A stretch of DNA of 64,000 nucleotides from a virus: IMG/VR virus record IMGVR_UViG_3300035670_000119, positions 21,906 through 85,905 of that record; one strand, written 5' to 3'. Numbering within the stretch: position 1 is the stretch's first letter; the number at the start of each line of letters is the position of its first letter. The notes beneath the pieces are model-generated. The model was not told the origin of the DNA. It did no database searches and worked only from the letters and a program-made list of their open reading frames with translations. The translations under genes were made by a program, and so were the position numbers. Of this stretch, positions 36,185-57,901 are shown piece by piece.

Positions 36185-36209
36185 CGTCAAGCTGGACGTT
36201 AAACGTAGC
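36185..36209 (+). promoter_or_regulatory. Pseudoknot leader motif copy 1 (divergent)
   Basis: CGTC-AAGCTG-GACG-TTAAAC-GTAGC. Confidence 0.55.
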
Positions 36210-36232
36210 CTTGTCCTACCTAATTCAACACC

Positions 36233-36394
36233 ATGACTTACACCGTTATCATCAAGCATCACGACGTATTCTCTCAGTCTTATCTCCAGGGCTGTGAGCA
36301 ATCGTTTGACACTGAGCAGCAAGCTCAGGATTACATTCAAACATTTGAGGATTGGGAACAAGATCTTCTGGAGATTGATTTCAATCCTTTCTGA
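36233..36394 (+). CDS. Small acidic early protein (53 aa)
   Basis: Manual translation MTYTVIIKHHDVFSQSYLQGCEQSFDTEQQAQDYIQTFEDWEQDLLEIDFNPF; CAACACC-ATG context. Confidence 0.65.
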   Translation: MTYTVIIKHHDVFSQSYLQGCEQSFDTEQQAQDYIQTFEDWEQDLLEIDFNPF

Positions 36395-36475
36395 GTAACA
36401 GGCGTGATGCCGGGGGATCGAATCCCCCACTCAGTATTGCCACAATTCAGTGGCATTTACCTACACCACACGACC

Positions 36476-36664
36476 GTGATCAAAGCACAGAACGTCTACG
36501 CACTCATCATCATCCAGGCATTTGCCATGGGTATTATCGCTGGTCCAGTTGCTGGATACTTCATTGATAAGGCAACTGCCAAGCAATGCATTACTCACGA
36601 CTGGCCGAAGGAGGCCGATCAAATCCACCGTGATTGGTGCGTCACTAACGGCTACAAGATCTAA
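36476..36664 (+). CDS. Small membrane protein
   Basis: Hydrophobic helix then C.THDWP...H.DWC..NGY; GTG start inferred. Confidence 0.6.
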   Translation: MIKAQNVYALIIIQAFAMGIIAGPVAGYFIDKATAKQCITHDWPKEADQIHRDWCVTNGYKI

Positions 36665-36736
36665 GACTCCTGCTCTGGGGACTACGGTCCCCTCAACAGG
36701 ACTCAACATCCTGTATCCCACTGCTCATTCAACACC

Positions 36737-36946
36737 ATGTCAATGATTAAGAACTGCACTGTCGTACTTTCCAACGGCAACGTCGTTGGGATGCATGCAA
36801 ACGAAGCAGATGCAGAAATGCAAGCAATGGAGCTGGCATACGAATGGCGCAGACAATCTGACTGTGGCTCCGAGGTACCAGCACCTAAGCTTGCCGTCCT
36901 GTCATTCAATGACTGGATGCAACTGCAGAAAGAGTTTGCATTCTGA
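36737..36946 (+). CDS. Early hypothetical protein
   Basis: CAACACC-ATG, fits between leader hairpins. Confidence 0.65.
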   Translation: MSMIKNCTVVLSNGNVVGMHANEADAEMQAMELAYEWRRQSDCGSEVPAPKLAVLSFNDWMQLQKEFAF

Positions 36947-37040
36947 TTCCTGCACTTAACCCTTCCATTGTGGTACATATGTACTACGACGGTAGGTTTT
37001 CTGCAGGCAATCAAGTCTGCTATCCAACTCAACTCAGCTC

Positions 37041-37229
37041 ATGACTGCACTACACATCCGCAAGAACATTGCTGCTGCACTGTTTAACACAGCGGCAGCT
37101 ATTGACAATGCCAAGCTTCCTACCAAGGAAGATATCGGTACTAAGGTGAATGAGTATCGGCTGCGTGCAGCGGCACTCATGATGCCGAACGATATGGCAT
37201 TCGTCATCACTCCTAAGCAAGGCAACTGA
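37041..37229 (+). CDS. Early hypothetical protein
   Basis: ORF after leader hairpin. Confidence 0.65.
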   Translation: MTALHIRKNIAAALFNTAAAIDNAKLPTKEDIGTKVNEYRLRAAALMMPNDMAFVITPKQGN

Positions 37230-37231
37230 TC

Positions 37232-37435
37232 ATGCACCGTAATTACTTTTCTGACTCCTGTGTCGCTCTTATTCTTGGCTCTGGCTTGGGTTTACTGTTA
37301 TCTGTTGGAGCACAGAAGCTTCTCAACAGACACTACCAAGCAACGTGCCATGACAGACCAGGACACAATCTGATCTACGTCCAAGGATTCCTTGGCGATA
37401 CGTACTACTGCATCAACAGTAAGTATATCAACTGA
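37232..37435 (+). CDS. Small membrane protein
   Basis: N-terminal hydrophobic helix. Confidence 0.6.
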   Translation: MHRNYFSDSCVALILGSGLGLLLSVGAQKLLNRHYQATCHDRPGHNLIYVQGFLGDTYYCINSKYIN

Positions 37436-37527
37436 TCTCTGCACTTTCCCATCATATCCATTGGATGTGATGGGTTCCTGCAGGGCTTAGCTCTGCATAC
37501 ACCACACGACACCACCAGGACTCAACC

Positions 37528-37773
37528 ATGACTCCTAAAGCTGTTGAATATCTCCTGACCCAAGACGCTCGTCTGCTAGCCAGGAGAGATGCCCCTTGCA
37601 TCGACCAAGAACTTGAGGCGCAGCGCCAAGCTGCTCTTGAATTGTTCTTCGAGTGGCAAGACGGTATGCGTCAATTCCAAGACCTTGTTCCCTTCGTTGC
37701 CATCGTGCAGCGTAAGGTAGATCTCAACCGGGATCTGCTTCGTTGGGAACGCAGGCAACTGGAACAAGATTGA
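37528..37773 (+). CDS. Early hypothetical protein
   Basis: ORF after leader hairpin. Confidence 0.65.
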   Translation: MTPKAVEYLLTQDARLLARRDAPCIDQELEAQRQAALELFFEWQDGMRQFQDLVPFVAIVQRKVDLNRDLLRWERRQLEQD

Positions 37774-37847
37774 CGACTACACTGAGGGGCTTCGGCCCTT
37801 CTCTGTAGTCTTCATCAAGAAGGCTACGTACCACTGCACACAACACT

Positions 37848-38111
37848 ATGGCAGTTTCAATTGACCATCACGACATCACAGCAGCCCTTAATAAATTCAA
37901 CCTTGAGGTAACTGATTATTATCTTGAGTTTGCTGATGATGTCATCTATATGTACTGGGTAGCATGCCCGGCAGATATAGAACACTACATCAAAGAAGAC
38001 ACTGGTTGCCTTGCGATTCAGATTAAAGGCAAGTGGTTCTATCTGGATGAATCCCGACCGGACACTGAGCGTCCGTTTGTTAACTGTCGTTATATCTTGG
38101 AGACAATCTGA
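37848..38111 (+). CDS. Early hypothetical protein
   Basis: ORF after leader hairpin. Confidence 0.65.
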   Translation: MAVSIDHHDITAALNKFNLEVTDYYLEFADDVIYMYWVACPADIEHYIKEDTGCLAIQIKGKWFYLDESRPDTERPFVNCRYILETI

Positions 38112-38317
38112 TGAAGACGATTTATTCAATGGGGAGAGGCAAATACATCCACCTCGATTCTTACGGTGAGTCTCATGGGACTCGCCGTTGGTCAGTTGGT
38201 ATTGCCCTCTTCTCCATCGTCATCGCCGCCATCACTGCCACCGCACTGGTGGACGTTGACATCACTGATCCTTCACTGAAACAACACCATGTCATTCACA
38301 ATCGCATTGGTTACTGA
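38111..38317 (+). CDS. Small membrane protein
   Basis: TGATG coupling; hydrophobic helix. Confidence 0.6.
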   Translation: MKTIYSMGRGKYIHLDSYGESHGTRRWSVGIALFSIVIAAITATALVDVDITDPSLKQHHVIHNRIGY

Positions 38318-38513
38318 CCGGAGTGGGCGTTATGCTCACGTCTGGGGAGAACCAAGGAGCTGGAATCAATTCGTTGAACAGCTCGAAGATGCTGGCTGCG
38401 AAGTGATTGAAAACCAGACCGAAGATTGGGAAGGGTCTACCAGGGATGAAGTCGCTGAAGACTGCTTGACAGTTCATCAGCTACTGCACGACACTGACTT
38501 CATTCCCCACTAA
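38289..38513 (+). CDS. Acidic early protein
   Basis: CAACACC-ATG; D/E-rich. Confidence 0.65.
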   Translation: MSFTIALVTDRSGRYAHVWGEPRSWNQFVEQLEDAGCEVIENQTEDWEGSTRDEVAEDCLTVHQLLHDTDFIPH

Positions 38514-38515
38514 AC

Positions 38516-38570
38516 ACCTGGGCATCCACAATTGAGAACTCTTCTCAATAACGTGGTGTAAGTCCCAGGT
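38516..38570 (+). promoter_or_regulatory. TAAGT-bulge stem motif copy 1
   Basis: ACCTGGG-CATC...GGTG-TAAGT-CCCAGGT. Confidence 0.65.
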
Positions 38571-38598
38571 CCAACCGTTCACTTACTCAACTTACACC

Positions 38599-38781
38599 AT
38601 GAGAGACCCTAACTTCATTGATGAACAACGTAACGCTGACTTGCTTGATACCATGGCTGATGTGGCATATCAACAAGAGCAAGCCATGCGTGAAGCGTTT
38701 GAAGAACATCAAGAACAATGGATGATGCGTGAATTGAATCTCAACTTATTTGAACAGGAGACCTACGATGACCAAGCCTAA
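38599..38781 (+). CDS. Acidic early protein
   Basis: 60-aa ORF after leader motif. Confidence 0.6.
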   Translation: MRDPNFIDEQRNADLLDTMADVAYQQEQAMREAFEEHQEQWMMRELNLNLFEQETYDDQA

Positions 38782-38868
38782 GTACACACTGCGTCAAGCA
38801 TGGGATGACGGTGACATTATCGTCATCCTGATCGCAATCATTTCAATCATCATCACTGAATTCGCATC

Positions 38869-39237
38869 ATGTCTTACATCTCAGAACTCAAGAAGTTCTA
38901 CCCCAAGACCTACAAAGTCCGCTTTGCAATCAACGCCTACAACACACACAAGTATTTCGAACACGAAAATCCAACGGTCATCACCGTGCACGAAACCTGC
39001 CTCCGTTATGGAGGACCCGAAGAAGGAGGCTGGTGGTTCCAGCAAGGTAACCCGGTCCTCAGCCACTGCATCTTCTCCAAGAAGCAAGCGATCCAAACCT
39101 ACGTCAAGTACTTCGAAGAGTACAAGATCGAAGGGCAGCCGTCTCTTGGAGATACAACAACTAGCTCCAACATCGAGCTAAGTTTTTCCAACAGGTATGC
39201 AGAGGTGTACCCTAAGACGCGTCCCCATTACTGCTGA
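38869..39237 (+). CDS. Conserved phage hypothetical (YGGPEEGGWW motif)
   Basis: Distinctive YGGPEEGGWW...RPHYC pattern. Confidence 0.75.
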   Translation: MSYISELKKFYPKTYKVRFAINAYNTHKYFEHENPTVITVHETCLRYGGPEEGGWWFQQGNPVLSHCIFSKKQAIQTYVKYFEEYKIEGQPSLGDTTTSSNIELSFSNRYAEVYPKTRPHYC

Positions 39238-39242
39238 GATTC

Positions 39243-39485
39243 ATGCTTGCCACTGCAGTACCAGCACTCAGTATCAATCAACGTAACCTCTATGCTTACT
39301 TCTTGAACCACAAGAAGAAGTATGGGAACACACCATGCTTTGTACCAAGGCTTCCGTCACAGGCCTCAAGGCTTGAGCAATATCTTCAAGCCTTGGTAAG
39401 GCTAGAGGAATACGGATTGATACGTGTAGACAGAAGCGTTGATAACTACACAGGCTGGATGATGCTAGAACCTAAGGCCACATAA
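39243..39485 (+). CDS. Winged-helix-like hypothetical protein
   Basis: LSINQRNLY...ALVRLEEYGLIRV. Confidence 0.55.
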   Translation: MLATAVPALSINQRNLYAYFLNHKKKYGNTPCFVPRLPSQASRLEQYLQALVRLEEYGLIRVDRSVDNYTGWMMLEPKAT

Positions 39486-39562
39486 CGTAATAACAGTGCC
39501 GTAGTATTGGATGGCATGTAAGAATTGCCAATACATGCCAATACTTCAGTTATAGTCTCAAT

Positions 39563-39603
39563 CCTGGGCAGCACTGACGTAAGTACGGTGCGTAAGTCCC
39601 AGG
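39563..39603 (+). promoter_or_regulatory. TAAGT-bulge stem motif copy 2
   Basis: CCTGGG-CAGCAC...GTGCG-TAAGT-CCCAGG. Confidence 0.6.
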
Positions 39604-39606
39604 CTT

Positions 39607-39834
39607 TTATCCGACTGTATTACGTACATCAGGTGTAAACCTTTGCATCTGATCTAACAACCTAAGCTCTGCTTGTTTGTTTTGTATCGGAATGCTTTCA
39701 TTTCTTATAACAGATGTTAAGAAGTCCATTACTTTATCTTGAGGTGGCATAGAACCATGTGCCTTCATGTATTCTTGTTGCCACCCTTGAAGGAATGGAC
39801 TATTGGCCATTGCATATCTACCAGCTAATAACAT
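39607..39834 (-). CDS. Counter-oriented hypothetical protein
   Basis: 75-aa ORF filling the gap between two leader motifs. Confidence 0.6.
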   Translation of the reverse strand: MLLAGRYAMANSPFLQGWQQEYMKAHGSMPPQDKVMDFLTSVIRNESIPIQNKQAELRLLDQMQRFTPDVRNTVG

Positions 39835-39863
39835 GGACCTGAGTATGTCCTTAAACTACTCAG
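39835..39863 (+). promoter_or_regulatory. Pseudoknot leader motif copy 2
   Basis: GGAC-CTGAGTAT-GTCC-TTAAAC-TACTCAG. Confidence 0.7.
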
Positions 39864-39902
39864 TCCATCATACTCATCATCAACCTCAACTCCACATCAA
39901 CC

Positions 39903-40178
39903 ATGACCTACCCCGAAATCGACTGGAAGAAGAACGAGTACAAGCAATTGGAAGAAGCTTTGGACATACTCAAAGCTGTCATCGAACGTGAATCAAAGCG
40001 TCATCAAATGGATGAGCACTTAGTTCCAGGAGATAATGATATTGTCCAAGAAGCAATCGGTTTGCTTGAAGAGATCATTGACTATGACCCGACACCTAAC
40101 GAGCCTGGTGAACCTCCCATGACAATGGACGAAATGCACAGTGCTGCATGGAAAGAACACCAGGAGATGCACCGGTAA
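39903..40178 (+). CDS. Acidic hypothetical protein
   Basis: 91-aa ORF after leader. Confidence 0.7.
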   Translation: MTYPEIDWKKNEYKQLEEALDILKAVIERESKRHQMDEHLVPGDNDIVQEAIGLLEEIIDYDPTPNEPGEPPMTMDEMHSAAWKEHQEMHR

Positions 40179-40329
40179 CAGCCAACTAGGGGGGACTAGT
40201 ACATAAGTACTTCCCCCCACACCCCCCGACAGAGTACCAGGGAATCCTTGGATTTATATAGGACATACTTATGTTCCATTCCCTTGACTCCCTGGTAGAC
40301 TGTCCTTGTTAATCAACTCATCTCAACCC

Positions 40330-40542
40330 ATGACTACTCCCAACACTCCACGTATACCTGACTCTCTTGACATGCAAAGACTTCAAGCTATGCAACTTGT
40401 TGCAAAGATGAAGGAATCAGCAGAGAGAAATGGTATTGGATTCATTGGTGGATTCATTGCTCCGAATGGAGAGAAGTTTGTCATGACCAACATGACAGAC
40501 GAAGATGACATCAATGCACTCATGCCGGAGGATCTTAAGTGA
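40330..40542 (+). CDS. Hypothetical protein
   Basis: ATG in CAACCC context. Confidence 0.65.
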   Translation: MTTPNTPRIPDSLDMQRLQAMQLVAKMKESAERNGIGFIGGFIAPNGEKFVMTNMTDEDDINALMPEDLK

Positions 40543-40874
40543 ATCAATCTCATCCCGTTATTCCAACCGAGTACCTGCTTGATGCTTGGCATCAGCAACA
40601 TCAACGATACAGAAAGAGCTTCAAAGAAATTCTTATTGAAGCTGCCCAATGGGGAGCTGATACAGAATTAGAAGAATGTTGTAAGCTATTCGAATCTAAT
40701 TCTGTATGTGGCACCAAGTTTCAGCGGAGATCTTCTGTTCGAGATCTACGTGAAAAGCGTAGACCTTCACCCAAGCAAAAGACATTGACAGTGTCAATCA
40801 CTGGTACTGAAGATGAACTTGAACAACTCATTCGCAAACTCAAACATGAACAACAAATCTCGATTGAACTTTGA
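40539..40874 (+). CDS. AAQWGAD-ELE-CC family paralog
   Basis: HPVIP...W...AAQWGADTELEECC. Confidence 0.7.
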   Translation: MNQSHPVIPTEYLLDAWHQQHQRYRKSFKEILIEAAQWGADTELEECCKLFESNSVCGTKFQRRSSVRDLREKRRPSPKQKTLTVSITGTEDELEQLIRKLKHEQQISIEL

Positions 40875-41043
40875 CAAAACTATCGCAGGATTCAACATTA
40901 CCGAGCGCGGTGTGCGCTCGTACAGTAAATCAATTAAGCTTGGTCCATTCCAAGTAACACTTAACGCACGTGAGTCTGGCTTACGTGGTACCATTGGTAT
41001 CCCTGGCACAGGCGTTTCAATTCCAAACATTAAGCTAATCTAA
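40846..41043 (+). CDS. DUF4236-like protein
   Basis: NITERGV.S.S...GP...TIGIPGTGVS. Confidence 0.6.
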   Translation: MNNKSRLNFDKTIAGFNITERGVRSYSKSIKLGPFQVTLNARESGLRGTIGIPGTGVSIPNIKLI

Positions 41044-41107
41044 AGATCTGGGCATCCGAAAGCAACGCCGCGTCCAGGACACGCCGTAGGTGTAAGTCCC
41101 AGATCTT
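41043..41107 (+). promoter_or_regulatory. TAAGT-bulge stem motif copy 3
   Basis: AAGATCTGGG-CATC...GGTG-TAAGT-CCCAGATCTT. Confidence 0.65.
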
Positions 41108-41129
41108 GTCCACTAACTCAACTCAACTC

Positions 41130-41315
41130 ATGTCTGCTTACGTCGAAAACCTCACCTTGTTTGATCGCATCAATCTTGCTGCCTGCGCACAGCGCAGAGC
41201 AACAGAAAATGTGTTGGATTCAACACGATTCAATGGCGAGTTTGACACAGCACGTCTGTGGATGAAGTATCGCCTTGTCAAGTACAGCAACTATTCATTT
41301 ATCGAGGGCAACTGA
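41130..41315 (+). CDS. Hypothetical protein
   Basis: ATG after leader. Confidence 0.6.
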   Translation: MSAYVENLTLFDRINLAACAQRRATENVLDSTRFNGEFDTARLWMKYRLVKYSNYSFIEGN

Positions 41316-41566
41316 TGACAGTCTTAGCAATCGAAAACACTTCATTCACTGACACTCATGTCACAGTTACAGCAGTTGTTGACGAGATGCGCCTGCTCTA
41401 TCGCGGAAGTCGTCTCGACCCTGAAGAGTGGGCTCCTGCATTGTGTCAAGCAACTATTGAGTTGGATCCAGAGGAACAAATCCCTCTTGATGAAGATGGC
41501 TTCTGTGCCTATCTTGATCACCTCGATCCTCAATGGCAAGTACTAGATCCGGAGGACATCGGATGA
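41315..41566 (+). CDS. Acidic hypothetical protein
   Basis: TGATG coupling. Confidence 0.65.
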   Translation: MTVLAIENTSFTDTHVTVTAVVDEMRLLYRGSRLDPEEWAPALCQATIELDPEEQIPLDEDGFCAYLDHLDPQWQVLDPEDIG

Positions 41567-41748
41567 TTGGCTTCTCAATTGAATTCAAACGTTGGTACTT
41601 TGTACTACGTGGTCCTAAGGGTCGTGTGTACTTGGCAACTGGCTTTGCTAAACGCATGCCAGTCATAACGCCGATTGGCACCTATGACATGGAACAGTAC
41701 ATCGAAGAGACGTCACTGTTCTTAGATATACATCGGTACGAAGACTGA
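41563..41748 (+). CDS. Hypothetical protein
   Basis: ATGA coupling. Confidence 0.55.
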   Translation: MIGFSIEFKRWYFVLRGPKGRVYLATGFAKRMPVITPIGTYDMEQYIEETSLFLDIHRYED

Positions 41749-41753
41749 TCACA

Positions 41754-41781
41754 CGTCCTGGACATGACGTTAAACTGTCTA
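41754..41781 (+). promoter_or_regulatory. Pseudoknot leader motif copy 3
   Basis: CGTC-CTGGACAT-GACG-TTAAAC-TGTCTA. Confidence 0.7.
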
Positions 41782-41803
41782 TTTCATTTACTCATTTAAC
41801 CCA

Positions 41804-42100
41804 ATGGAAATCAATTCTCCAACGCCACCTTTAGATCTTGTTAATGATTGGATGACGCATTGGTATGACGACAATCAAACCGATGATACCCAAGAAATGT
41901 ACATTGCAACTAAGGCTGCAATGTGGGGTGCTATCTGGGGTGCTACTAATGCGTTAGAAACAGCTATCAAAGACACATCTCCTGTTCACTGGCGTGTAGC
42001 CGGTGGTGCAGAAGATGGTCAGCAAATAGTACGTGTTATTGATCTAATGGAATGGCTTGCACAATTCCGTAAAGAATATGAGGAGAAGATCAATGGCTGA
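41804..42100 (+). CDS. Divergent AAxWG family paralog
   Basis: TPPLDLVNDW...YIATKAAMWGA. Confidence 0.65.
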   Translation: MEINSPTPPLDLVNDWMTHWYDDNQTDDTQEMYIATKAAMWGAIWGATNALETAIKDTSPVHWRVAGGAEDGQQIVRVIDLMEWLAQFRKEYEEKING

Positions 42101-42347
42101 ACTTTCACCAGTAGCAAAATCAATTTTGAAAGCTGCTTATAAAGCAACACGAATTCCTGATTGGCAGAATAAGTTTTATTCCAGCTATGCTGCTGCTGTG
42201 CTTCGTACTGCCGTAGAAAAAGTGATTTCAAAGGAATGGCCAACTATTGAAGACTACAACGAATACGATCAAGGCTTTGCTGCTGCACACATCAACTATC
42301 GAAATCAACTTTTAGATATTGCTGATGAACTTGAAAGCTTGACTTGA
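42093..42347 (+). CDS. ELSP-AAVLR-LLxIAxELE family paralog
   Basis: MAELSPVAKSILKAAY...AAAVLR...LLDIADELE. Confidence 0.7.
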   Translation: MAELSPVAKSILKAAYKATRIPDWQNKFYSSYAAAVLRTAVEKVISKEWPTIEDYNEYDQGFAAAHINYRNQLLDIADELESLT

Positions 42348-42352
42348 TCAAC

Positions 42353-42380
42353 CGTCCTGGATATGACGTTAAACTGTCCA
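42353..42380 (+). promoter_or_regulatory. Pseudoknot leader motif copy 4
   Basis: CGTC-CTGGATAT-GACG-TTAAAC-TGTCCA. Confidence 0.7.
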
Positions 42381-42402
42381 TTCCCTTTACCTACACTACA
42401 CC

Positions 42403-44130: not shown

Positions 44131-44179
44131 AGCCACAGCAGGGGGATCCTATCTTCGTTATATGGATCCCTCTTTACCT

Positions 44180-44398
44180 ATGACTGACTACACCGATGAT
44201 CAGTTACTTGCTATGGCCATGGCAAACCTTGGCGAATACATTCACGAAAACTCACCACACTATGTATTGATTGAAGAAGATTCTCGTAACGAGGATGACT
44301 ACGACACATGGGAGTACGGCACTGAGCCGTTACCTCAAGACCACACTTGGCACTCCACATCAATTGATGTAGAGGTAAGTCCAAGTGAGGCCGACTAG
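44180..44398 (+). CDS. Very acidic small protein
   Basis: D/E-rich; stop lies inside the tRNA 5' end. Confidence 0.6.
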   Translation: MTDYTDDQLLAMAMANLGEYIHENSPHYVLIEEDSRNEDDYDTWEYGTEPLPQDHTWHSTSIDVEVSPSEAD

Positions 44399-47398: not shown

Positions 47399-47399
47399 T

Positions 47400-49738: not shown

Positions 49739-49766
49739 GGACCTGAGCACGTCCTTAAACTACTCA
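49739..49766 (+). promoter_or_regulatory. Pseudoknot leader motif copy 5
   Basis: GGAC-CTGAGCAC-GTCC-TTAAAC-TACTCA. Confidence 0.7.
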
Positions 49767-49801: not shown

Positions 49802-50566
49802 ATGAAACTTCTCAAGTTTTCCACCGGCAACGGCAAGCTCAAGAACCGACTCATCTTTAACCTGCCTGCTGGTTATGCATGCCCGCACGCTGGTGTGTGC
49901 AAGACCTTTGCTGATCGCACCACAGGTCAGATCACTGACTTGCCTCAGTACACAGGTGTCACAGCAGACCTTGAGTACCGCTGCTTTGCTGCCATGGCAG
50001 AGACCCGTCCCACCGTACGGGAAGCACGCTGGCACAACTGGGATCTACTGCGTGAAACCATTCACATGAATGGGAACCAAGCTGTGCTGTTGCGTGATCT
50101 GATCGACCTATCACTCTTGATGCAGCCAGCTAAAGAACTCATCCGTATCCATGAGAGCGGTGATTTCTGGACCGAGAACTATATGAAGGCGTGGATCATG
50201 GTTGCACAAAGTCGTCCACAACAGAAGTTCTATGCATACACCAAGTCTCTTGGTATGTGGTACAACTTGCGTGACATCATTCCTGACAACTTTTATCTCA
50301 CCGCATCACACGGCGGTACGCTCGATTACCTGATCGACAAGTATCCTGATGTGTACCAGCGGGTTGCTCACGTTGTCTATACAGAAGAGCAGGCGGCAGA
50401 GCTTGGACTCAGCATCGATCATGATGACAGCCATTGCTTAGGTAACAAGCCGTTTGCACTCCTGGTCCATGGATCCCAACGTGCTGGGTCTGATGCCATG
50501 GCTGCTATCACACAACGCAAGAAAGATGGCAAGTTTGTAGGCTACGGTAAGACAAACAAGAAATAA
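49802..50566 (+). CDS. Gp88-like (radical-SAM-related) phage protein
   Basis: GNGKL...FNLPAGYACPHAGVC...CFA...IRIHESGDF...FYAYTKS. Confidence 0.75.
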   Translation: MKLLKFSTGNGKLKNRLIFNLPAGYACPHAGVCKTFADRTTGQITDLPQYTGVTADLEYRCFAAMAETRPTVREARWHNWDLLRETIHMNGNQAVLLRDLIDLSLLMQPAKELIRIHESGDFWTENYMKAWIMVAQSRPQQKFYAYTKSLGMWYNLRDIIPDNFYLTASHGGTLDYLIDKYPDVYQRVAHVVYTEEQAAELGLSIDHDDSHCLGNKPFALLVHGSQRAGSDAMAAITQRKKDGKFVGYGKTNKK

Positions 50567-50628
50567 TTCTGTAGACACTTGCGGATCAGGTGAAATCAGA
50601 TATCATGCACCTGTCTTTCATCTGATCC

Positions 50629-50862
50629 ATGTCTTACGTCATTGCTTGTTGGCAGGAGGGCAAGCCTTATGCCATTACTGCCAACAGTAAATCCAATGCA
50701 TTTGAGTTGATTCCGCTAAACTCTGATGTAGCTTTAAACAAGATCTTCTCTCATCCCTACAGGGCTGGAGCACAGCAGATCTTGACGTGGATCAACAGCA
50801 ATGACCAAGACCTTGCCGGTAAAGAACTCCAGGTTCGAGATGAATCCGAATTCCGTAAATGA
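50629..50862 (+). CDS. Hypothetical protein
   Basis: 77-aa ORF upstream of the polymerase. Confidence 0.65.
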   Translation: MSYVIACWQEGKPYAITANSKSNAFELIPLNSDVALNKIFSHPYRAGAQQILTWINSNDQDLAGKELQVRDESEFRK

Positions 50863-52663
50863 CAAATGGTTTGTATTTGATTTGGAATCGGATGGACTCT
50901 ATGACAAGGTCACTAAAATCCATTGCATTGTTATCTATGACATCACAGGCCAACAAACTTTTACTTATGGGCCTGATCGCATTGCTGATGCTATTGCTCA
51001 TCTGGCAACCGCTGATGTTTTGATTGGCCATAATGTTTGTTTCTACGACATACCTGTTCTGCAAAAGTTGCATTCATTTGATTGCAAAGCACGCATTATT
51101 GACACACTCATTTGCACACGATTGATCTGGCCTAAGGAGAAACTCTATGAACTTGACGAAGAACAATATCCGCAGGTTCCAAAGAAGAACCGAGGTGCCG
51201 CATCACTTAAGGCCTGGGGATGGCGCTTGGCCGATCATAAGATCGACTTCAAAGACTTCTCCGAATATTCTGAAGAGATGCTTGCGTATTGTCAGCAAGA
51301 CGTTGCAGTCACGACGAAACTCTGGGCGCACATCACTAAACAAAACTATCCGCAGTCAGCGCTTAAGCTGGAGCACGACTTTGCCAATGCAATTAATAAA
51401 CAAATTAGAGCAGGTGTTCCTTTTGATGTGGATGCAGCTCTTGATCTTGTGGATAATCTCCGAGCAAAAGAAACACAGCTGGAGTCACAACTAAAAGAAA
51501 TCTTTCCTCCTATCAAGCACAGTACTTGGTTTACACCCAAAGTAAACAACGCAACACGTGGTTATGTCAAGGGAGTTCCTTTTGAAAAAATCCGATACGA
51601 AGAATTCAATCCTGGATCTCGTGACCAAATTGTTGAGCGACTCAAAAGTAAGTACGGATGGGAACCTGAAAAAACAACTGAAAAAGGAAATCCAATCCTT
51701 AATGATGAAGTGTTAGAACAGCTGCCATACCCAGAGGCCAAGCCCCTGGCAGAATATATGCTCGTCAAGAAACGTCTAGGTCAAATCATTGATGGAAACA
51801 ACTCTTGGCTCAAGCTGGTTAATAATGACAGCGGTTGCATGCACGGTGACGTTGTCACTAATGGTTGCATCACTGGTCGTGCTAGTCACCGATACCCAAA
51901 CATGGGTCAGGTCCCTGCAGGTTATTCGCCATACGGTAAGGAGTGCCGTTCATTATTTCATGCGCCACAAGGATGGAACATGATTGGTATTGATGCCAAA
52001 GCTTTGGAGTTACGTTGTCTTGCCGGTTATCTAGCCCTGTGGGATAACGGAGAATATGCACGTGTTGTAACAAACCCTGACATTGACATTCACGTATACA
52101 ACCAAGAAAGGTTTGGTGTTGAAACACGTGACATAAGTAAGAGATTGCTTTATGCCGTACTGTATGGTGCAGGTAATCTCAAGGCAGGTACTATTATTAA
52201 CCCAAATGAAAAAGATGAAGAAGTTCTGCGACAACTAGGAAGAACTGCAATTAATTCATTCATGAAAGGTGTGCCTGCACTTAAAGCACTTAAGGAACAA
52301 ATCGATGGTTACATTAGATCCAGGGGTTATCTCATTGGTCTTGATCGCCGTATTTTATATTGTCGCTCAGCGTTTAAAGGATTGAATGTCCTGTTGCAAT
52401 CAGCAGGTGCAATCTTAATGAAACAAGTTGTCATTAACATTCATGAGAACATTGAACATAAGCTTGGCTTGGTCCATGACCAAGACTGGCAGCAAGTCTT
52501 GATGGTCCATGATGAAGTACAGATTGTTTGTAAGCCTGAACACACAGAACGCATCCGTGATCAGGCCATGGCAGCCTTCCCGCAAGCACAGAAATTCTTT
52601 GGCTTCCAGTGTGAGATCGAAGGCGATTCTCGTGTAGGATCCAGCTGGGCAGAGACGCACTAA
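50840..52663 (+). CDS. polA: T7-type family A DNA polymerase with 3'-5' exonuclease
   Basis: FDLESDG, IGHN...YDIP, GIDAKALELR (motif A), RDISKRLLYAVLYGAG (motif B, Tyr762 type), VHDEVQ (motif C). Confidence 0.95.
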   Translation: MNPNSVNDKWFVFDLESDGLYDKVTKIHCIVIYDITGQQTFTYGPDRIADAIAHLATADVLIGHNVCFYDIPVLQKLHSFDCKARIIDTLICTRLIWPKEKLYELDEEQYPQVPKKNRGAASLKAWGWRLADHKIDFKDFSEYSEEMLAYCQQDVAVTTKLWAHITKQNYPQSALKLEHDFANAINKQIRAGVPFDVDAALDLVDNLRAKETQLESQLKEIFPPIKHSTWFTPKVNNATRGYVKGVPFEKIRYEEFNPGSRDQIVERLKSKYGWEPEKTTEKGNPILNDEVLEQLPYPEAKPLAEYMLVKKRLGQIIDGNNSWLKLVNNDSGCMHGDVVTNGCITGRASHRYPNMGQVPAGYSPYGKECRSLFHAPQGWNMIGIDAKALELRCLAGYLALWDNGEYARVVTNPDIDIHVYNQERFGVETRDISKRLLYAVLYGAGNLKAGTIINPNEKDEEVLRQLGRTAINSFMKGVPALKALKEQIDGYIRSRGYLIGLDRRILYCRSAFKGLNVLLQSAGAILMKQVVINIHENIEHKLGLVHDQDWQQVLMVHDEVQIVCKPEHTERIRDQAMAAFPQAQKFFGFQCEIEGDSRVGSSWAETH

Positions 52664-52668
52664 CTACC

Positions 52669-52920
52669 ATGGCAACCAAACGCACACCTACTCTTAAACA
52701 ACTTTTTAATACATGGAAAAGGTATAAAAAAATACAAAGTCAACTAACACAAATTCAACACGAGTTAAACAGCATGGCTCAAAAGATTGACTATGCTACT
52801 GAGTTAATTCGTGATGAAGATAATGTATATAGAGTTACTGCCAAGGGCCGTTATGGTTGTTATGAAATTGAACAAATTGCTTGCGCAGAAGAACTAAACA
52901 ATCTCCTAACCAACTCCTAA
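52669..52920 (+). CDS. Hypothetical protein
   Basis: 83-aa ORF. Confidence 0.6.
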   Translation: MATKRTPTLKQLFNTWKRYKKIQSQLTQIQHELNSMAQKIDYATELIRDEDNVYRVTAKGRYGCYEIEQIACAEELNNLLTNS

Positions 52921-52940
52921 TTATCTCCAAATTAGGAGTT

Positions 52941-52968
52941 CGTCCTAAGCATGACGTTAAACTGCTTT
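52941..52968 (+). promoter_or_regulatory. Pseudoknot leader motif copy 6
   Basis: CGTC-CTAAGCAT-GACG-TTAAAC-TGCTT. Confidence 0.7.
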
Positions 52969-52988
52969 AACACTACCCATCTGATCTG

Positions 52989-53807
52989 ATGAATTACGTT
53001 GATGTTTGTGCAATCCTGAACGAGGAACCTCGTCAGGTGTATACAAGTGCAACCGCATTCAATTACTGCGCAGAAGTAACGCTTCCGCCAGCTAGCAACA
53101 ACAAAGCTCCTACCGTACTTGCCCTCAATGTCTACGGGAAAACTGGCGAAGCATTCAAGGGAATGCCTAAAGGAGCCAGGATTTATATTCACGGCGCCAA
53201 GTTACGGTTTGATGTCCAATCAAAAACGTATTCGCTCCATGGAGGAGTTGTTGCTCAAGTTACTGAAGCATTCCCCGTCTTTAACGACGTGATCTTAACT
53301 GGTCGTTGCATCAAAGATATTGATCAAACAGATGCACGCGCTTTTAAAACAACGGCTGATGGTTTGATGATTGCCAATCAAACACTATCAGTTAATACTG
53401 GTCGCAACCAAGCTGATCTGTTCAACTTCTACGCTATTAACACAGCGCAAGACAAGTTCAATCAAGCTGAATTGCTTGTGAACTTTACCAAGAAGGGAAC
53501 AGGTATTACGATTCGTGCTCGCCTTGTTACCGATGCATGGACCGATAAAGAAACACAAGAGCGGCGAAGTGTTACCAAGTTACAGTTGATTAATATGACT
53601 CTTGCTCCTAAGAGCAGTGAGTCTCAACCGAAACAAGTGACATCTCAGACAACGGTTGCATCCACCGAGAATGTTGCTAACCTATGGGGCGGCAAGACCG
53701 TTGAGGAGTCCACTGATCCCTGGACTGCAGGCCCCAACACTGGACTGCCTGACCTCCCTGGTCAATACGGCAACGCACCTGAATTTAACGACGAACCTCC
53801 ATTCTGA
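52989..53807 (+). CDS. ssb: Single-stranded DNA-binding protein with two OB folds
   Basis: NDVILTGR...KKGTGITIRARLVTDAWTDKET..RS; acidic tail NDEPPF; N-terminal OB-like copy. Confidence 0.75.
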   Translation: MNYVDVCAILNEEPRQVYTSATAFNYCAEVTLPPASNNKAPTVLALNVYGKTGEAFKGMPKGARIYIHGAKLRFDVQSKTYSLHGGVVAQVTEAFPVFNDVILTGRCIKDIDQTDARAFKTTADGLMIANQTLSVNTGRNQADLFNFYAINTAQDKFNQAELLVNFTKKGTGITIRARLVTDAWTDKETQERRSVTKLQLINMTLAPKSSESQPKQVTSQTTVASTENVANLWGGKTVEESTDPWTAGPNTGLPDLPGQYGNAPEFNDEPPF

Positions 53808-54061
53808 TGTCAACTCAGCCCGAAGATCAATTTACTTTCCTCTATGAGGACGGTAAACGTAAAGTCCTGCATGAGTTCCAGGGCATTGCAACTGATGAAA
53901 TTGTTGATGAGATGATCCAATTCCTTCGTGGTGTTGGGCATCTCGAAATCAATATCATCGAACGGCTGCATGAAATCTCAAGACAATATCTTGAGTTATA
54001 TGAAGCTACGTCAACGATCAAACTGCCGATGCAGCAGGATGATCTTGATGAAGTAGAGTGA
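53807..54061 (+). CDS. Hypothetical protein
   Basis: HEF...DEIVDEMIQFLRGVG pattern; TGATG coupling. Confidence 0.7.
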   Translation: MSTQPEDQFTFLYEDGKRKVLHEFQGIATDEIVDEMIQFLRGVGHLEINIIERLHEISRQYLELYEATSTIKLPMQQDDLDEVE

Positions 54062-54066
54062 TCTCT

Positions 54067-54093
54067 CGTCCTCTGGTACGACGTTAAACTGCC
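54067..54093 (+). promoter_or_regulatory. Pseudoknot leader motif copy 7
   Basis: CGTC-CTCTGGTAC-GACG-TTAAAC-TGCC. Confidence 0.65.
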
Positions 54094-54115
54094 TGTCCTT
54101 GACTACGAAACAACC

Positions 54116-55135
54116 ATGACTACTGCCATGACGACCAAGAAAACTGCTGCGCTTGCAACCAGGAGCCTCGATTCTTTCAAACTCTTCCAATCCAAAGAAT
54201 TTGTCTCTGGATACCAAAATCTGGTTACTATTCAACCCCTTAACAAATCCAAAGTCCGAGGTTGGTTTGTGCGGAAATCAGACCTGGACACTTGCGGATG
54301 GAGTGCCACTGAAAATCAATTTGCTAAAGGTTCAGTTATCTGGGACTACAAACAAACTTTTGGTATGGCTCCCAACACTTCAATTGAAGAAGGACTTAAT
54401 TTTACTGAGCCTCGTTTGCAAATCCTTTTACGTTCTCCCCTCATGGTTGAGGAGACAACAGGGATGAGGCAGACGATCGGAACCTTTGAGGATCCGGAAG
54501 TCAAAGCCATGTTTGATAACGACAAAGTAGCCGCTGATCTTGCCAACAGCAAAGGTGAGATGTACAAACGTAAGTACAGCGTACGCACAAAGTACCTGGT
54601 CTACATCCTGACCGAAGACAACAAGCGTGCACATAAGATTCCTATGGTGCTTACACTCAAGGGTCTTAATGGCACGGATGTCAGCGACAAAGTCAAGCTG
54701 TACGAAAAAGAGATGTCCAAGTGCCTGAGCAAGGCGCTGGACTCTGAGGTACCCCTGGCATTCAACGAGAAGTTCTATGCCACCACGGTGTTTGTTCCCG
54801 TACTTGCCAACGAGATGCGTGGTGCAAACAACGTGGAGATCTGTGCTATCGAATCGTTTGAGATTCCGGATTACAGCACGCAAGATGAAGCGATTAATTC
54901 GCTTAATCGCCTCAGCATTCCTGATGAAGATCGTGAATCAACCTGGAAATTCCAGGAGATGTTCAGCGATTACATCAATCAGCATGCAAGACAGGATGCA
55001 CAGAAGCTTGGTGGTGCCTATGGAATCAAGGAGGGTGTTGAAATTCTCCCCGTTTCTCGTACCACGGATGCAGTAGATGTGAAAGCATTGCCTGCCCGTG
55101 ATCCTCTGACTGGTGAGGATGATTCACTCCTTTGA
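54116..55135 (+). CDS. Hypothetical replication-module protein (possibly cyanobacterial DUF5895-like)
   Basis: 339-aa ORF; family assignment tentative. Confidence 0.6.
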   Translation: MTTAMTTKKTAALATRSLDSFKLFQSKEFVSGYQNLVTIQPLNKSKVRGWFVRKSDLDTCGWSATENQFAKGSVIWDYKQTFGMAPNTSIEEGLNFTEPRLQILLRSPLMVEETTGMRQTIGTFEDPEVKAMFDNDKVAADLANSKGEMYKRKYSVRTKYLVYILTEDNKRAHKIPMVLTLKGLNGTDVSDKVKLYEKEMSKCLSKALDSEVPLAFNEKFYATTVFVPVLANEMRGANNVEICAIESFEIPDYSTQDEAINSLNRLSIPDEDRESTWKFQEMFSDYINQHARQDAQKLGGAYGIKEGVEILPVSRTTDAVDVKALPARDPLTGEDDSLL

Positions 55136-55333
55136 TTTCTGCATGTAATTCTCTTGCATGAGATCCATAGCATCAGAGACCAATCCTTTGATTGCTATTT
55201 GACGTTGTGTAGCGATCTTGGTCAACAAGGTCGCTATTTCTTTTAGCTCACTTACCGAATTACATTCATTGATTTGACGTATCATCTTTTCTTGCCAGAA
55301 AGAATCTTCTGGTGAGATTTCAAATTTCAACAT
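55124..55333 (-). CDS. Small helical protein, weakly NblA-like
   Basis: EISPEDSFWQEKMIRQI...LKEIATLL...IKGLV; TAGAAT upstream. Confidence 0.45.
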   Translation of the reverse strand: MLKFEISPEDSFWQEKMIRQINECNSVSELKEIATLLTKIATQRQIAIKGLVSDAMDLMQENYMQKSKE

Positions 55334-55412
55334 GTTATTCAATTAGTTTGTATCATTCTACGTACCCATTTAAACTTGACCTGATTCCACTGAATGTGTT
55401 AAGGATTACAAA

Positions 55413-55616
55413 ATGAAACCTGAAGACAAAGCAGCTCTCAAGGTGGGAGGTGCCACAGCCCTGATTGTTGGTACCATTGCGTTTTGCATACCAAACCCCG
55501 CTGCCTGGGCGGCAGTGATCTGGGGATCGTATAAGATGGGTAAGCAGGCCAGGGATCGAGAGATCAGCCGGCAGGCCAAGCGTCACTGGTCTGCGGACCA
55601 GGACAACACCATCTGA
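55413..55616 (+). CDS. Small membrane protein
   Basis: Hydrophobic hairpin. Confidence 0.6.
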   Translation: MKPEDKAALKVGGATALIVGTIAFCIPNPAAWAAVIWGSYKMGKQARDREISRQAKRHWSADQDNTI

Positions 55617-55624
55617 TTCAAACC

Positions 55625-55789
55625 ATGCGTAAACTATTCCAGCTCTTGTGGATAGGCCATGAACACAAATGGAAGATCATTGAAGAAAGTAGTTTTCAAT
55701 ACGAAGGTAGCTTTAGTAGTTACCGATGCATTCGTTACTACCTTCAATGCGAGGTATGCGGTGATGTAAAAATACGCGACATGCGTTAA
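55625..55789 (+). CDS. 54-aa zinc-ribbon-like protein
   Basis: Manual translation ...GHEHKW...QCEVCG. Confidence 0.55.
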   Translation: MRKLFQLLWIGHEHKWKIIEESSFQYEGSFSSYRCIRYYLQCEVCGDVKIRDMR

Positions 55790-55814
55790 CAACCAATTCA
55801 ATTTGATTTAATCC

Positions 55815-56765
55815 ATGACAACTCAACTTCAACAACAAGAATTAAATCCTGCGCAAGCTCTAATCTACACACGTACTAATATCAGTCGTGCATTCCAGGG
55901 GTTTGATGACACCGAAATTGCTGGCATTTATCTGCGAGGCGATGATTGTCTTGTGGTGCGTCGCGATGGTAGTGAGCAGACTTACCCAAGGGAGCTAATC
56001 AAGCTTGCCTTTACCAATTACACTAACCGTCTTAAAGATTTCTTTTCTTACCTTGGTCCTAATTATCGTGGCCCTAGTGTATGGCACAACAATGCTTACA
56101 TTATGTTTAAGGGCTGGCACTACACGCACGCACTCGGACACCTGACTTCCAATGCAAAACTACAAGCTCACTGGGCAGACAAATTTATACACCTATCAGA
56201 CTCCAACAAGCTCATCACCCTCCTTCAATCTGACCAAACGGACATTGGACATCTGGTTGCGCCGGACGGGTTGCGGCTTACGAATCGGCCGATTGATTTG
56301 GACTCTGACATGGAGGAAGAAGGGTCAGGTGTATCGCCCGTCACTCCTGAACCTTATTGCTCATGTGGGTCCTTTCAGCGTCAGCTTCTTAATGTTTCAG
56401 AATTTCAGGCTGAGATCCAGGGATTCAAACCCTGGTGCATCCACCTGAGTTGGTTCAACAAGTACAGAGAGTTGCTGTGCAAACGCACAGAAGCACGTAA
56501 CGCCAGTCCCAGTGGCACACCTGAGAAGTGCGTGGCCTGGTGGTATGCACCGCCTAAGGACTCAATCAGTGACGGACGCTTTGTATTGTTGTATACAAAC
56601 CATGGAGCACAAGCTCCTCTCAGTCACTGGCGTACCTACAAACCTAACGAAGTGTTTACTCAGCACCATGCATGGGATCTGTTTTTCAATATGATGGAGG
56701 CTTCCTACGTACCATTCCCTGGAATTTCATTACCTCAACTCAAGTCCGCAATCAAGAAACAATGA
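55815..56765 (+). CDS. SWIM zinc-finger domain protein
   Basis: YCSCGSF...WCIHL. Confidence 0.7.
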   Translation: MTTQLQQQELNPAQALIYTRTNISRAFQGFDDTEIAGIYLRGDDCLVVRRDGSEQTYPRELIKLAFTNYTNRLKDFFSYLGPNYRGPSVWHNNAYIMFKGWHYTHALGHLTSNAKLQAHWADKFIHLSDSNKLITLLQSDQTDIGHLVAPDGLRLTNRPIDLDSDMEEEGSGVSPVTPEPYCSCGSFQRQLLNVSEFQAEIQGFKPWCIHLSWFNKYRELLCKRTEARNASPSGTPEKCVAWWYAPPKDSISDGRFVLLYTNHGAQAPLSHWRTYKPNEVFTQHHAWDLFFNMMEASYVPFPGISLPQLKSAIKKQ

Positions 56766-56965
56766 TTGAAAACGAAATTGATTACAAAACTGAATACCAC
56801 CGTATTGCCCATACTGTGAGCAAACACTTTCCCGAATGTGAAATCACCACACTTGATATGGTGAAACTTTTAATCCATGAAAACAACACGCTTCGAATGG
56901 CCCTTAAGATTCCAATTGCTCGTAATGTACTCTGGCGTATAGAAACTGATGACAATGACGGATGA
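56762..56965 (+). CDS. Hypothetical protein
   Basis: ATGA coupling. Confidence 0.55.
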   Translation: MIENEIDYKTEYHRIAHTVSKHFPECEITTLDMVKLLIHENNTLRMALKIPIARNVLWRIETDDNDG

Positions 56966-57443
56966 CATCTTTGGCTACGCACGTCTGGTCCCTCACTCCC
57001 GTTTGTGGAAGAGCAGCTCGATGACTGATGACACCCTTGAATACGCACGTCAACTTGTTGCAAACCAACCCATGAAACTTCCAGCGCATCGCAACTACCA
57101 TCTTGAAATTCCTGATGATTTGCATTGGGAGTTAGTCAGGCTTGGCGCAGAACTTAAGATGGACTATGAAGTTTATGCAGAAGAAATTCTTAAGATGCAC
57201 GCAGAAGATGCAATAAGTAAACGGATTGTTGCCAGGGCATACAACGATCCGAGCTGGGTGTACAAACTCAACCTTGAATGTATTGAAGAAGAAGATGGTT
57301 CCATGACCATTCACATCGAGTGGGATGAAAAGGATCCTGATCTTCAATACTGGACAAACCTTGGGTCCAAGGGGCAGGAAAACCTTATACTGACTGCGTT
57401 GCGCTCCGCTTGCAACTCTGTTTTATCCAATCATGACAATTGA
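56949..57443 (+). CDS. Hypothetical protein (possible ribbon-helix-helix segment)
   Basis: YHLEIPDDLHWELVRLGAE; internal MTDD...YAR duplication. Confidence 0.55.
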   Translation: MTMTDDIFGYARLVPHSRLWKSSSMTDDTLEYARQLVANQPMKLPAHRNYHLEIPDDLHWELVRLGAELKMDYEVYAEEILKMHAEDAISKRIVARAYNDPSWVYKLNLECIEEEDGSMTIHIEWDEKDPDLQYWTNLGSKGQENLILTALRSACNSVLSNHDN

Positions 57444-57849
57444 CACCTACGGCCTCACCACTGAACAATACACTGAGTTCTTCCATAAGAACTTAAGGTT
57501 TGCTGCCAAGCTTTACCTTGATACCTGCAACATCTTGAGCAGTGAAGGAGTCGGCAATGTTGACTTCAAAACTGTCTTAGATATGTACCAGGAAGCTGTG
57601 TACACAACCAATGATGACTGCCGTCGTTATCAAAAGAGCAACAACCCCGAAGCTCTGAAGGAAAACGATGTGTATGGCGTTGTTTCTTCTCGCGAAGAGC
57701 TTACTCAAATGATTGAAACATTGGTAACTTACACAGAGGCTCTTGATGCCAAACTTGAAGCACTGACCGAGTACGTCAACAACCTAGTCACTGTTACCAC
57801 AGCAGGTCTTGAGGGTATTGCCACGACCCTTGATGACAAGGTAGACTGA
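57433..57849 (+). CDS. Hypothetical coiled-coil protein
   Basis: 138-aa ORF. Confidence 0.7.
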   Translation: MTIDTYGLTTEQYTEFFHKNLRFAAKLYLDTCNILSSEGVGNVDFKTVLDMYQEAVYTTNDDCRRYQKSNNPEALKENDVYGVVSSREELTQMIETLVTYTEALDAKLEALTEYVNNLVTVTTAGLEGIATTLDDKVD

Positions 57850-57874
57850 CCACGCACAAGCCTTGCAGGGTCGC

Positions 57875-57901
57875 CGTCCTGGTCATGACGTAAAACTGAC
57901 C
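57875..57901 (+). promoter_or_regulatory. Pseudoknot leader motif copy 8
   Basis: CGTC-CTGGTCAT-GACG-TAAAAC-TGACC. Confidence 0.7.

Follow-up and report, generated by a model that had tools for sequence, protein, structure and literature searches.

Eight short, similar sequences stand ahead of genes in a viral genome fragment, each a few tens of nucleotides (nt) before a start codon: what kind of element are they, and what might it do there? The fragment analysed here, hereafter the window, is a stretch of 64,000 nt (positions 21,906 to 85,905) from the 85.9-kb IMG/VR virus record IMGVR_UViG_3300035670_000119. Over its replication region it shares 82% identity with the polar freshwater cyanophage Synechococcus phage S-EIV1, and its genes from ~35 to 64 kb run on the + strand. 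We conclude with high confidence that the element is a sense-strand RNA pseudoknot of the coremin class.

To our knowledge, exoribonuclease-resistant RNAs (xrRNAs) are known only from viruses of eukaryotes. A strongly covarying coremin core carried by phages, prophages and bacterial genes would, if true, bring prokaryotes into this class. It would also give a concrete explanation for the differing expression of neighbouring genes in compact phage operons, and bacterial mRNAs could be stabilised or insulated with a protein-free part of 28 nt.

Seven canonical pseudoknots and one atypical copy

The eight sites named in a first-pass annotation of this DNA are all present on the + strand, which is the gene strand. 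They comprise seven canonical H-type pseudoknots and an atypical one (at 36185), 27-29 nt long and located 26-46 nt before an ATG. Common to the seven are a 4-base-pair (bp) first stem (S1), an 8-nt loop (once 9 nt) of the form C-U...A-N, the closing strand of S1, the hexamer UWAAAC, and 4-7 bases complementary to the inner loop, which form the second stem (S2). The gaps to the ATG, counted from the end of TWAAAC, are exactly those claimed earlier: the six CGTC copies keep 26-28 nt, while the two GGAC copies have 46 nt and 41 nt.

The first of the two GGAC/GTCC copies (39835..39863) has a 7-bp S2 and precedes by 46 nt the ATG at 39903 of an open reading frame (ORF) of 91 amino acids (aa) that belongs to no family. 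The second (49739..49766) contains one C-A mismatch in S2 and lies 41 nt upstream of a GP88-family gene (49802-50566). At 41754..41781 and 42353..42380 the knot follows 5 nt after the end of the upstream stop codon and stands 28 nt before the next ATG, which opens a 98-aa ORF (41804) and a PcfJ-like gene (42403-44130), respectively; orthologues of the latter site carry compensatory changes in S2. The copy at 52941..52967 is found 26 nt before the SSB gene (52989-53807). The same distance separates the knot at 54067..54093 from a DUF5895 gene (54116-55135); this knot combines the 9-nt loop with a 4-bp S2, and the upstream stop codon again ends 5 nt before it. The last copy (57875..57902) carries the TAAAAC variant and lies 28 nt before the ATG at 57925 of a short hydrophobic ORF starting MFEF. 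Pfam assigns the named downstream genes to PcfJ-like, GP88, SSB and DUF5895 families, which confirms the PcfJ-like, Gp88-like and SSB targets proposed earlier. A family A DNA polymerase gene is located between the knot-headed genes.

The copy at 36185..36209 has an S1 of CGTC/GACG and the hexamer TTAAAC, and is followed after 28 nt by the ATG at 36233 of a 53-aa ORF. We call it atypical because its loop (AAGCTG) has 6 nt and only a shifted 4-bp S2 is possible. A covariance model matches only GACGTTAAAC of this copy (positions 15-24, E 3.7), and the invariant loop letters are missing. Applied to all positions of the 64 kb on both strands, the same model recovers the seven canonical copies with E values between 2e-8 and 0.27 and no further convincing copy. 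A structural scan of the window (4-bp stem, 6-10 nt loop, TWAAAC) yields 11 sites among the 61 TWAAAC words of the + strand and 2 among the 54 of the - strand; eight of the 11 are the reported copies. The exact string GACGTWAAAC occurs six times in the window, always on the + strand and within a reported copy, and a search allowing one mismatch gives 13 matches versus 6.3 expected.

Both stems covary on the sense strand

A first model collects 55 copies, every one of them on the gene strand, from S-EIV1, ten related contigs and the window. In the 48 distinct copies from the window phage and 11 relatives, S1 is paired to 100% and S2 to 89.9%. The outer pair of S1 is C-G, G-C, U-A or A-U, its G-C and C-G pairs are invariant, and its middle (third) pair is UA in 39 copies and AU in 9, while five of the six S2 pairs change on both sides. 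None of 500 shuffles matches the observed percentage of paired positions or the covariation score, and slid registers of the set drop to 13-40% paired. Orthologous sites display the same behaviour: 12 GP88 leaders use four different S1 pairs (TGTC/GACA, CGTC/GACG, GGAC/GTCC and GGTC/GACC), and the orthologues of the SSB leader contain a compensatory change from A-U to G-C. S2 is a canonical helix of 5-6 bp, the first pair of which is an invariant A-U directly after AAAC.

Since the 48 copies were picked by a model aware of S2, we repeated the test with ascertainment by sequence only, using the pattern GTCCT-N6-GAC-N-TWAAAC-T, in which the S2 letters are left free and the second loop letter is fixed as T. 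Viral contigs contain this pattern in at least 132 places on at least 118 contigs. Of the 132 matches listed, to which the following counts refer, 112 form all five S2 pairs and 16 form four; the register slid by one mostly gives one or two. In the 119 unique, unrelated viral sequences, each of the four variable S2 pairs is formed in 108-116 cases, with four to five pair types each and with double changes, and the structure pairs 93.4% of cells compared to 21-49% for slid controls. The penultimate loop letter, although free in the pattern, is A in 119 of 119, and the last is U in 76, A in 30, C in 12 and G in 1. At the second loop position all seven canonical window copies have U; rare relatives have C there but in no case G. 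Overall, the loops are highly conserved.

Covariation of both stems, asserted in the first-pass annotation, is confirmed by the 48-copy, 119-sequence and orthologue comparisons: it is real in the window, at orthologous sites of 11 S-EIV1-like relatives, and in 119 unrelated viral sequences. Moreover, G-U pairs (74) outnumber A-C mismatches (15), and therefore the folding strand is the sense strand. Together with the occurrence of the same element in RNA viruses (see below), this bears out the view of an RNA rather than a double-stranded DNA element.

A variant of the coremin core

Comparison with Rfam leaves the knot without a family. In a scan of the window against Rfam 15, only two tRNAs reach the gathering score, tRNA-Leu(TAA) at 44389-44464 (+) inside the early gene block and tRNA-Pro(TGG) at 63641-63712 (-) near the window end; no knot adjoins either. 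At E<=10 nothing overlaps a knot copy over 35000-59000 and 41700-42450, so that preQ1, SAM-II, pistol and the other Rfam families considered earlier do not match any copy, and eight knot-bearing loci have no Rfam match at E<=0.1. RF03003 (GP20-b), which shares a similar prophage context before PF06810-type scaffolding genes, was considered separately and rejected, with no match at E<=10 in the phage and none over the cut-off in five prophage hosts; its model does not match the knot. A tRNA-like or CCA-tail reading was likewise dropped, as no letters are conserved after S2.

In its core the knot corresponds instead to coremin, the 20-nt core of a small Xrn1-resistant RNA in benyviruses, cucumoviruses and many other RNA viruses, for which PMC10520033 gives the sequence GUCCGAAGACGUUAAACUAC. 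As far as the accessible text of the coremin papers goes, the match extends to the functional map. The phage knot shares GUC...GAC-G-UUAAAC-U with the published sequence. In coremin, single changes of A16, A17, C18 or U19, or the triple change A15-A17, abolish stalling, while U13U14 are changeable (PMC6546385); in the phage knots the corresponding essential positions are invariant and the tolerant ones vary (T/C and T/A). Likewise, the loop-closing C-G of coremin cannot be flipped and its second stem pair tolerates exchange as long as pairing is maintained (PMC6546385), and as this map predicts, the closing C-G of the phage knots is invariant and their second pair is UA or AU. Further common features are the GUC/GAC stem, a loop that begins with a pyrimidine and ends with A-D, the spacer (G)UUAAAC-U, a position in intergenic or untranslated regions just past a stop codon, and occasional tandem copies.

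The two also differ. The phage loop has 8 nt (C-U-N4-A-(U/A/C)), whereas the coremin loop is YGAD or YGNNAD. In the coremin spacer consensus (G)UUAAACUAC, A16 to A20 are described as essential and U13U14 as tolerant; the phage spacer keeps UWAAAC-U, but where coremin has a fixed final A-C it carries variable letters, which engage the loop in 5-6 Watson-Crick pairs. The phage knot furthermore occurs in DNA genomes with bacterial hosts and is devoid of hp2, the second hairpin of coremin, which has at least 4 bp and directly follows the spacer. According to PMC10321173, coremin is modelled as an H-type pseudoknot resembling luteovirid frameshifting knots, and Watson-Crick variants with a 3-bp S2 exist. 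The phage knot resembles this type, xrRNA-WCC (matches of a screen, with Sanxia picorna-like virus 5; PMC10321173), in the canonical antiparallel S2 between loop and spacer. Its S2 is of Watson-Crick type and covaries, in a register that differs from the published 3-bp S2: in xrRNA-WCC this helix includes the C of AAAC, the loop has 4 nt, L1 is G, and hp2 is required for Xrn1 resistance, while effects on ribosomes are independent of hp2 (PMC10321173).

The same variant is found in eukaryote-type RNA viruses. Seven of ten tested short contigs (1-5 kb) among the pattern matches encode RNA-virus proteins, namely tombus-like, luteo/sobemo-like and noda-like polymerases, a dicistrovirus-type capsid, a tombus-type coat protein and an alpha-like helicase-polymerase. 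In twelve short contigs the knot begins ~10-90 nt after the stop codon of the preceding large ORF on the same strand. On the RNA-virus contigs L021, L052, L054, L058, L063, L084 and L094, an 8-nt-loop Watson-Crick knot follows the polymerase or coat stop codon and is in turn followed by a hairpin.

The earlier view that this is no recognised family is not supported, as the core is already known as coremin (PMC10520033, PMC6546385). The knot is nevertheless absent from Rfam, and among the papers listed by our literature searches none reports coremin-like or xrRNA elements in phage genomes or a regulatory motif of S-EIV1; in the accessible coremin literature we found no description of the 8-nt-loop variant, and in the accessible text the word "phage" does not occur in PMC10520033 or PMC10321173, nor do "bacteria" and "RNase J" in PMC10321173. 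Overlap is possible with the thousands of candidate phage RNAs of PMC10690425, 12 of which, in its accessible part, lie upstream of SSB-type genes. The novelty thus lies in the variant, which is distinct, and in its hosts, which belong to a realm new for this class.

Other pseudoknots and xrRNAs were compared as well. Luteovirid -1 frameshift knots such as that of beet western yellows virus (BWYV) are close to it in plan and size, with a short S1, an L1 of 1-2 nt with C, a junction base and an A-rich L3 (a comparison made in PMC10321173), but the phage knot is intergenic rather than placed in a gene overlap and lacks a slippery heptamer upstream. A role as a -1 programmed frameshift signal was rejected on this ground: a slippery heptamer 5-9 nt upstream is present in none of the eight window copies, and in 6 of 177 instances versus 3 of 177 for a control window. 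Flaviviral and tombusvirid/solemovirid xrRNAs share the proposed protein-free directional block; they are ring-forming folds of 44-70 nt without sequence similarity to the knot.

Placement relative to genes

In the window, the upstream gaps range from 5 to 349 nt (5 nt in three copies; 20, 20, 25, 173 and 349 nt in the others). In 179 unique instances, taken from the window and from the viral loci listed, we measured how far the knot stands from the end of the closest ORF (40 codons or more) on its 5′ side. Gaps of 5, 6 and 7 nt account for 39, 11 and 7 instances, respectively; two have 4 nt, none has 0-3 nt, and the larger distances form a long tail. A stop triplet occurs at offset 5 in 58 of 178 of the matches listed, compared to ~11 at other offsets. 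The ribosome unwinding zone has its edge at ~+12 from the P site; with a stop codon and 5 nt in between, the first paired base falls at about this position, and the knot thus stands as near to the terminating ribosome as folding allows.

On the downstream side, the gap to the start codon is kept at 26 nt in 11 of 11 SSB leaders and 7 of 7 DUF5895 leaders of the respective ortholog groups, and the intervening leader is G-poor and unfolded. The window genes lack Shine-Dalgarno (SD) sites whether they are headed by a knot or not, while in other phages the knot precedes genes with ordinary, strong SD sites at varying distance. Both observations speak against the earlier idea that the knot substitutes for an SD site. 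In six loci the knot lies 2-10 nt before tRNA genes and in two it follows 12 nt after a tRNA gene. Tandem arrangements also occur, in which a second, more divergent knot follows ~10-20 nt after the first (L051, L116, L168, L246 and L228).

A possible roadblock to mRNA decay and competing explanations

Starting from the observed fold, strand, conservation, coremin kinship and placement, we infer that the knot blocks an enzyme in bacteria, and which enzyme this would be. Overall, the observations agree with a protein-free, one-way obstacle in 5′ leaders, probably a roadblock on the long phage messages, with 5′-to-3′ decay and ribosomes as its competing targets. The explanation we rank first, and hold only tentatively, is by analogy to coremin that of a roadblock to mRNA decay in 5′ leaders. 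Each copy is most probably transcribed within the sense mRNA and folds as a compact H-type pseudoknot composed of S1 (4 bp, N-G-U-C/G-A-C-N), L1 (C or C-U), S2 (5-6 bp), one junction base after the 5′ strand of S2, and L3 (UWAAAC), with S2 formed between the loop and the bases right after UWAAAC. As a coremin-class knot, it may stop enzymes moving 5′ to 3′ without the help of any protein. In long early/replication transcripts it heads the leaders of selected cistrons, which are short, G-poor and without SD sites, and would there halt 5′-to-3′ decay initiated upstream by the exonuclease RNase J or by 5′-end-tracking RNase E. The downstream cistron (SSB, GP88 or PcfJ-like) would thereby keep a stable, defined 5′ end.

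This explanation is supported by the spacing in the window, which is tighter to downstream than to upstream genes, by copies before tRNAs and before genes in bulk demand (SSB, scaffolding), and by the tandem copies, which are known from other xrRNAs. As reported in the accessible parts of the respective papers, bacterial RNase J1 halts in vitro at a flaviviral xrRNA (PMC5760640) and coremin stops Xrn1 in vitro without protein (PMC6546385). The RNase J profile TIGR00649, moreover, gives a control match in Synechococcus elongatus. Of the functions proposed in the first-pass annotation, an exonuclease block is the one best backed by outside knowledge.

Several findings weigh against it, among them the absence of hp2, which is described as strictly necessary for Xrn1 resistance in both coremin types (PMC10321173). 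The 30 nt after S2 have a minimum free energy (MFE) of 0 in five of the eight window copies, and in 128 copies from DNA contigs the mean MFE after S2 is -1.78 versus -1.47 kcal/mol for shuffles, at a G content of 12%. In contrast, it reaches -7.67 versus -5.44 kcal/mol in seven confirmed RNA-virus copies (six of which are at -4 or below) and -7.12 versus -3.85 kcal/mol in five suspected ones. RNA-virus copies thus fold after S2 and DNA-contig copies do not, which indicates that the same 8-nt-loop variant keeps hp2 in eukaryote-type RNA viruses but not in phages. The two sets constitute a natural experiment on what is needed to stop a nuclease as opposed to a ribosome, in a coremin fold that is still unsolved. 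In addition, the second loop letter of the phage knot is U where coremin requires G, and frameshifting pseudoknots of similar size (BWYV-type) are reported not to stall Xrn1 (PMC10321173). Finally, RNase J is not enriched among genomes with the knot. Its profile TIGR00649 is over the cut-off in 30 of 50 true-motif and 17 of 32 chance-match genomes listed, a comparison that left out 37 loci with three or four of the five S2 pairs. About 16 motif-bearing genomes have no match; these are mostly small and possibly incomplete Omnitrophota-type metagenome-assembled genomes (MAGs).

The explanation ranked second, which we consider rather unlikely, is that the knot sits between the footprints of a terminating and an initiating ribosome and blocks sliding, read-through or coupling, so that the downstream gene is initiated independently. 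Coremin stalls scanning ribosomes and drives -1 frameshifting (PMC10520033, PMC10321173). Its Watson-Crick variants came from a frameshifting screen in E. coli, with ~30% frameshifting for Hit2 without hp2 (PMC10321173), and the phage form is exactly of this hp2-less Watson-Crick type, whereas nuclease resistance needs hp2. The sharp edge of stop codons at 5 nt also favours an action on ribosomes, although it is equally expected if the knot need only stay folded, and in a cellular context a tiny ORF terminates at or within the knot. On the other hand, no translation is at stake where copies directly precede or follow tRNA genes, and the window copies with 173 and 349 nt upstream have apparently non-coding RNA there. 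Slippery heptamers are missing, as mentioned above, and such a block would have no evident benefit in bacteria. A further model, in which the leader is cut and 3′-to-5′ exonucleases trim back to the knot to leave the upstream message protected, would account for a stop codon 5-7 nt upstream in 57 of the 179 instances (among the matches listed) and for the unfolded, G-poor leader downstream; a knot 2-4 nt before a tRNA would then become a 3′ end after RNase P cleavage. It is nevertheless improbable given that the spacing in the window is tight to the ATG (26-46 nt) and loose upstream (5-349 nt), that the ortholog groups conserve the downstream distance, and that resistance of the coremin class is reported for the 5′ direction only.

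An explanation by protein recognition, according to which a host or phage protein (an endoribonuclease, or a repressor such as SSB) binds or cuts the knot and thereby punctuates the polycistronic RNA, has a small chance of being correct, if a slightly better one than trimming from the 3′ side. The highly conserved loops would fit a binding site, SSB is among the downstream genes, and 7 of 20 other gaps before the same kind of leader contain strong hairpins, reminiscent of phage RNase III sites. Coremin, however, works without protein in vitro, and the knot is shared by eukaryote-type RNA viruses, phages of many hosts and cellular genes, which leaves no phage-specific protein as partner. The T4 gene 32 operator is likewise a 5′ leader pseudoknot followed by unstructured RNA and an SSB gene, yet only one of the eight copies precedes SSB and the knot also occurs in unrelated viruses and cells; with seven of eight copies before other genes, nothing favours the operator of this kind that had been suggested. 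Least probable is that the knot acts at the DNA level, as a promoter or hairpin promoter read by a phage RNA polymerase, or that it is a small aptamer that senses a ligand. The fixed distance to the gene and the conservation of the core over ~20 nt would suit either, and the size is like that of preQ1-I aptamers. The ratio of 74 G-U to 15 A-C and the presence in RNA-virus genomes contradict a DNA signal, and the region 35500-55400 contains 17 sigma-70-like sites versus 30.0 expected, none of them at a copy. A promoter was also considered for the Firmicute loci and rejected, as the promoter-like hexamers there have no consistent spacing to the knot. The riboswitch-like aptamer of the first-pass annotation has gained nothing in its favour: no Rfam riboswitch matches at E<=10, and the downstream genes are too varied for one ligand.

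If the roadblock to decay is adopted in its widest form, the knots could be the first prokaryotic RNAs resistant to exoribonucleases or translocases, a claim we regard as somewhat doubtful. One protein-free, directional roadblock fold would then be spread across eukaryotic RNA viruses, giant viruses, DNA phages, prophages and cellular leader-peptide operons. It would punctuate polycistronic messages and set cistron-specific stability (e.g. of SSB and scaffolding genes) against RNase J, 5′-tracking RNase E and/or ribosomes, with the hp2-less phage form as a functionally distinct subclass.

Occurrence in prophages and cellular genomes

In 185,579 species genomes, in whose DNA many chance matches are expected, the pattern gives at least 120 rows; of the rows listed, 51 have all five S2 pairs and 32 have two or fewer. 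The five-pair matches listed belong to Firmicutes, Desulfobacterales, Omnitrophota, Patescibacteria, Chloroflexi, Bacteroidota and further groups. Within Firmicute prophages a terminator-like hairpin often directly precedes the knot; in L149 and its sister L148 this hairpin is accompanied by a T-run. A capsid scaffolding gene lies downstream in 6 of 10 prophage loci tested (L135, L149, L161, L170, L198 and L251; PF06810 or DUF4355). This is the gene context of the Rfam GP20-a/b motifs, yet RF03003 has no match there. Other genes after the knot in prophage and genome loci encode a ClpP-type protease, a PadR regulator and ribosomal protein L11. With scaffolding genes, tRNAs and cellular genes among its neighbours elsewhere, the knot is not the regulon signal of early/replication genes that had been proposed from the window.

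In L240 the knot lies ~100 nt upstream of the gene for ribosomal protein L11, in a 0.9-Mb genome, and thus in a core-gene context. The contig L194, assigned to a Crocinitomicaceae (Bacteroidota) MAG, carries an S-EIV1-like knot with a small ORF starting MFE... and is probably phage DNA that was mis-binned or derives from an infected cell.

At L169, L172, L233, L141, L144 and ~17 further genome loci, in MAGs of Omnitrophota, Desulfobacterales and Anaerolineae and in Planctomycetales-labelled ones, the 3′ end of a tiny ORF, which has a strong SD site, overlaps with the knot. The encoded peptide of 18-31 aa has the core (R/P)(P/R)VAHC-x-x-GC and no match in Pfam or NCBIfam. Its stop codon starts at knot position 0, 6, 12, 18 or 30, and a gene for an Rrf2-type regulator often follows 20-40 nt further on. 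This arrangement looks like a control unit of leader peptide plus knot.

Further structured leaders in the window

Strong hairpins are present in 7 of the 20 other gaps of the region (z -2.3 to -6.9) and are followed by the same G-poor leader. The knot is thus one of several structured modules that head such leaders. Very stable hairpins (z down to -6.9) are located in the early gaps 36650-37830, 38520-38580, 41050-41110, 44740-44800 and 47395-47455, and three of these gaps share a GGTGTAAGTCC(C/T)AG-like stretch, which constitutes a second repeated leader module.

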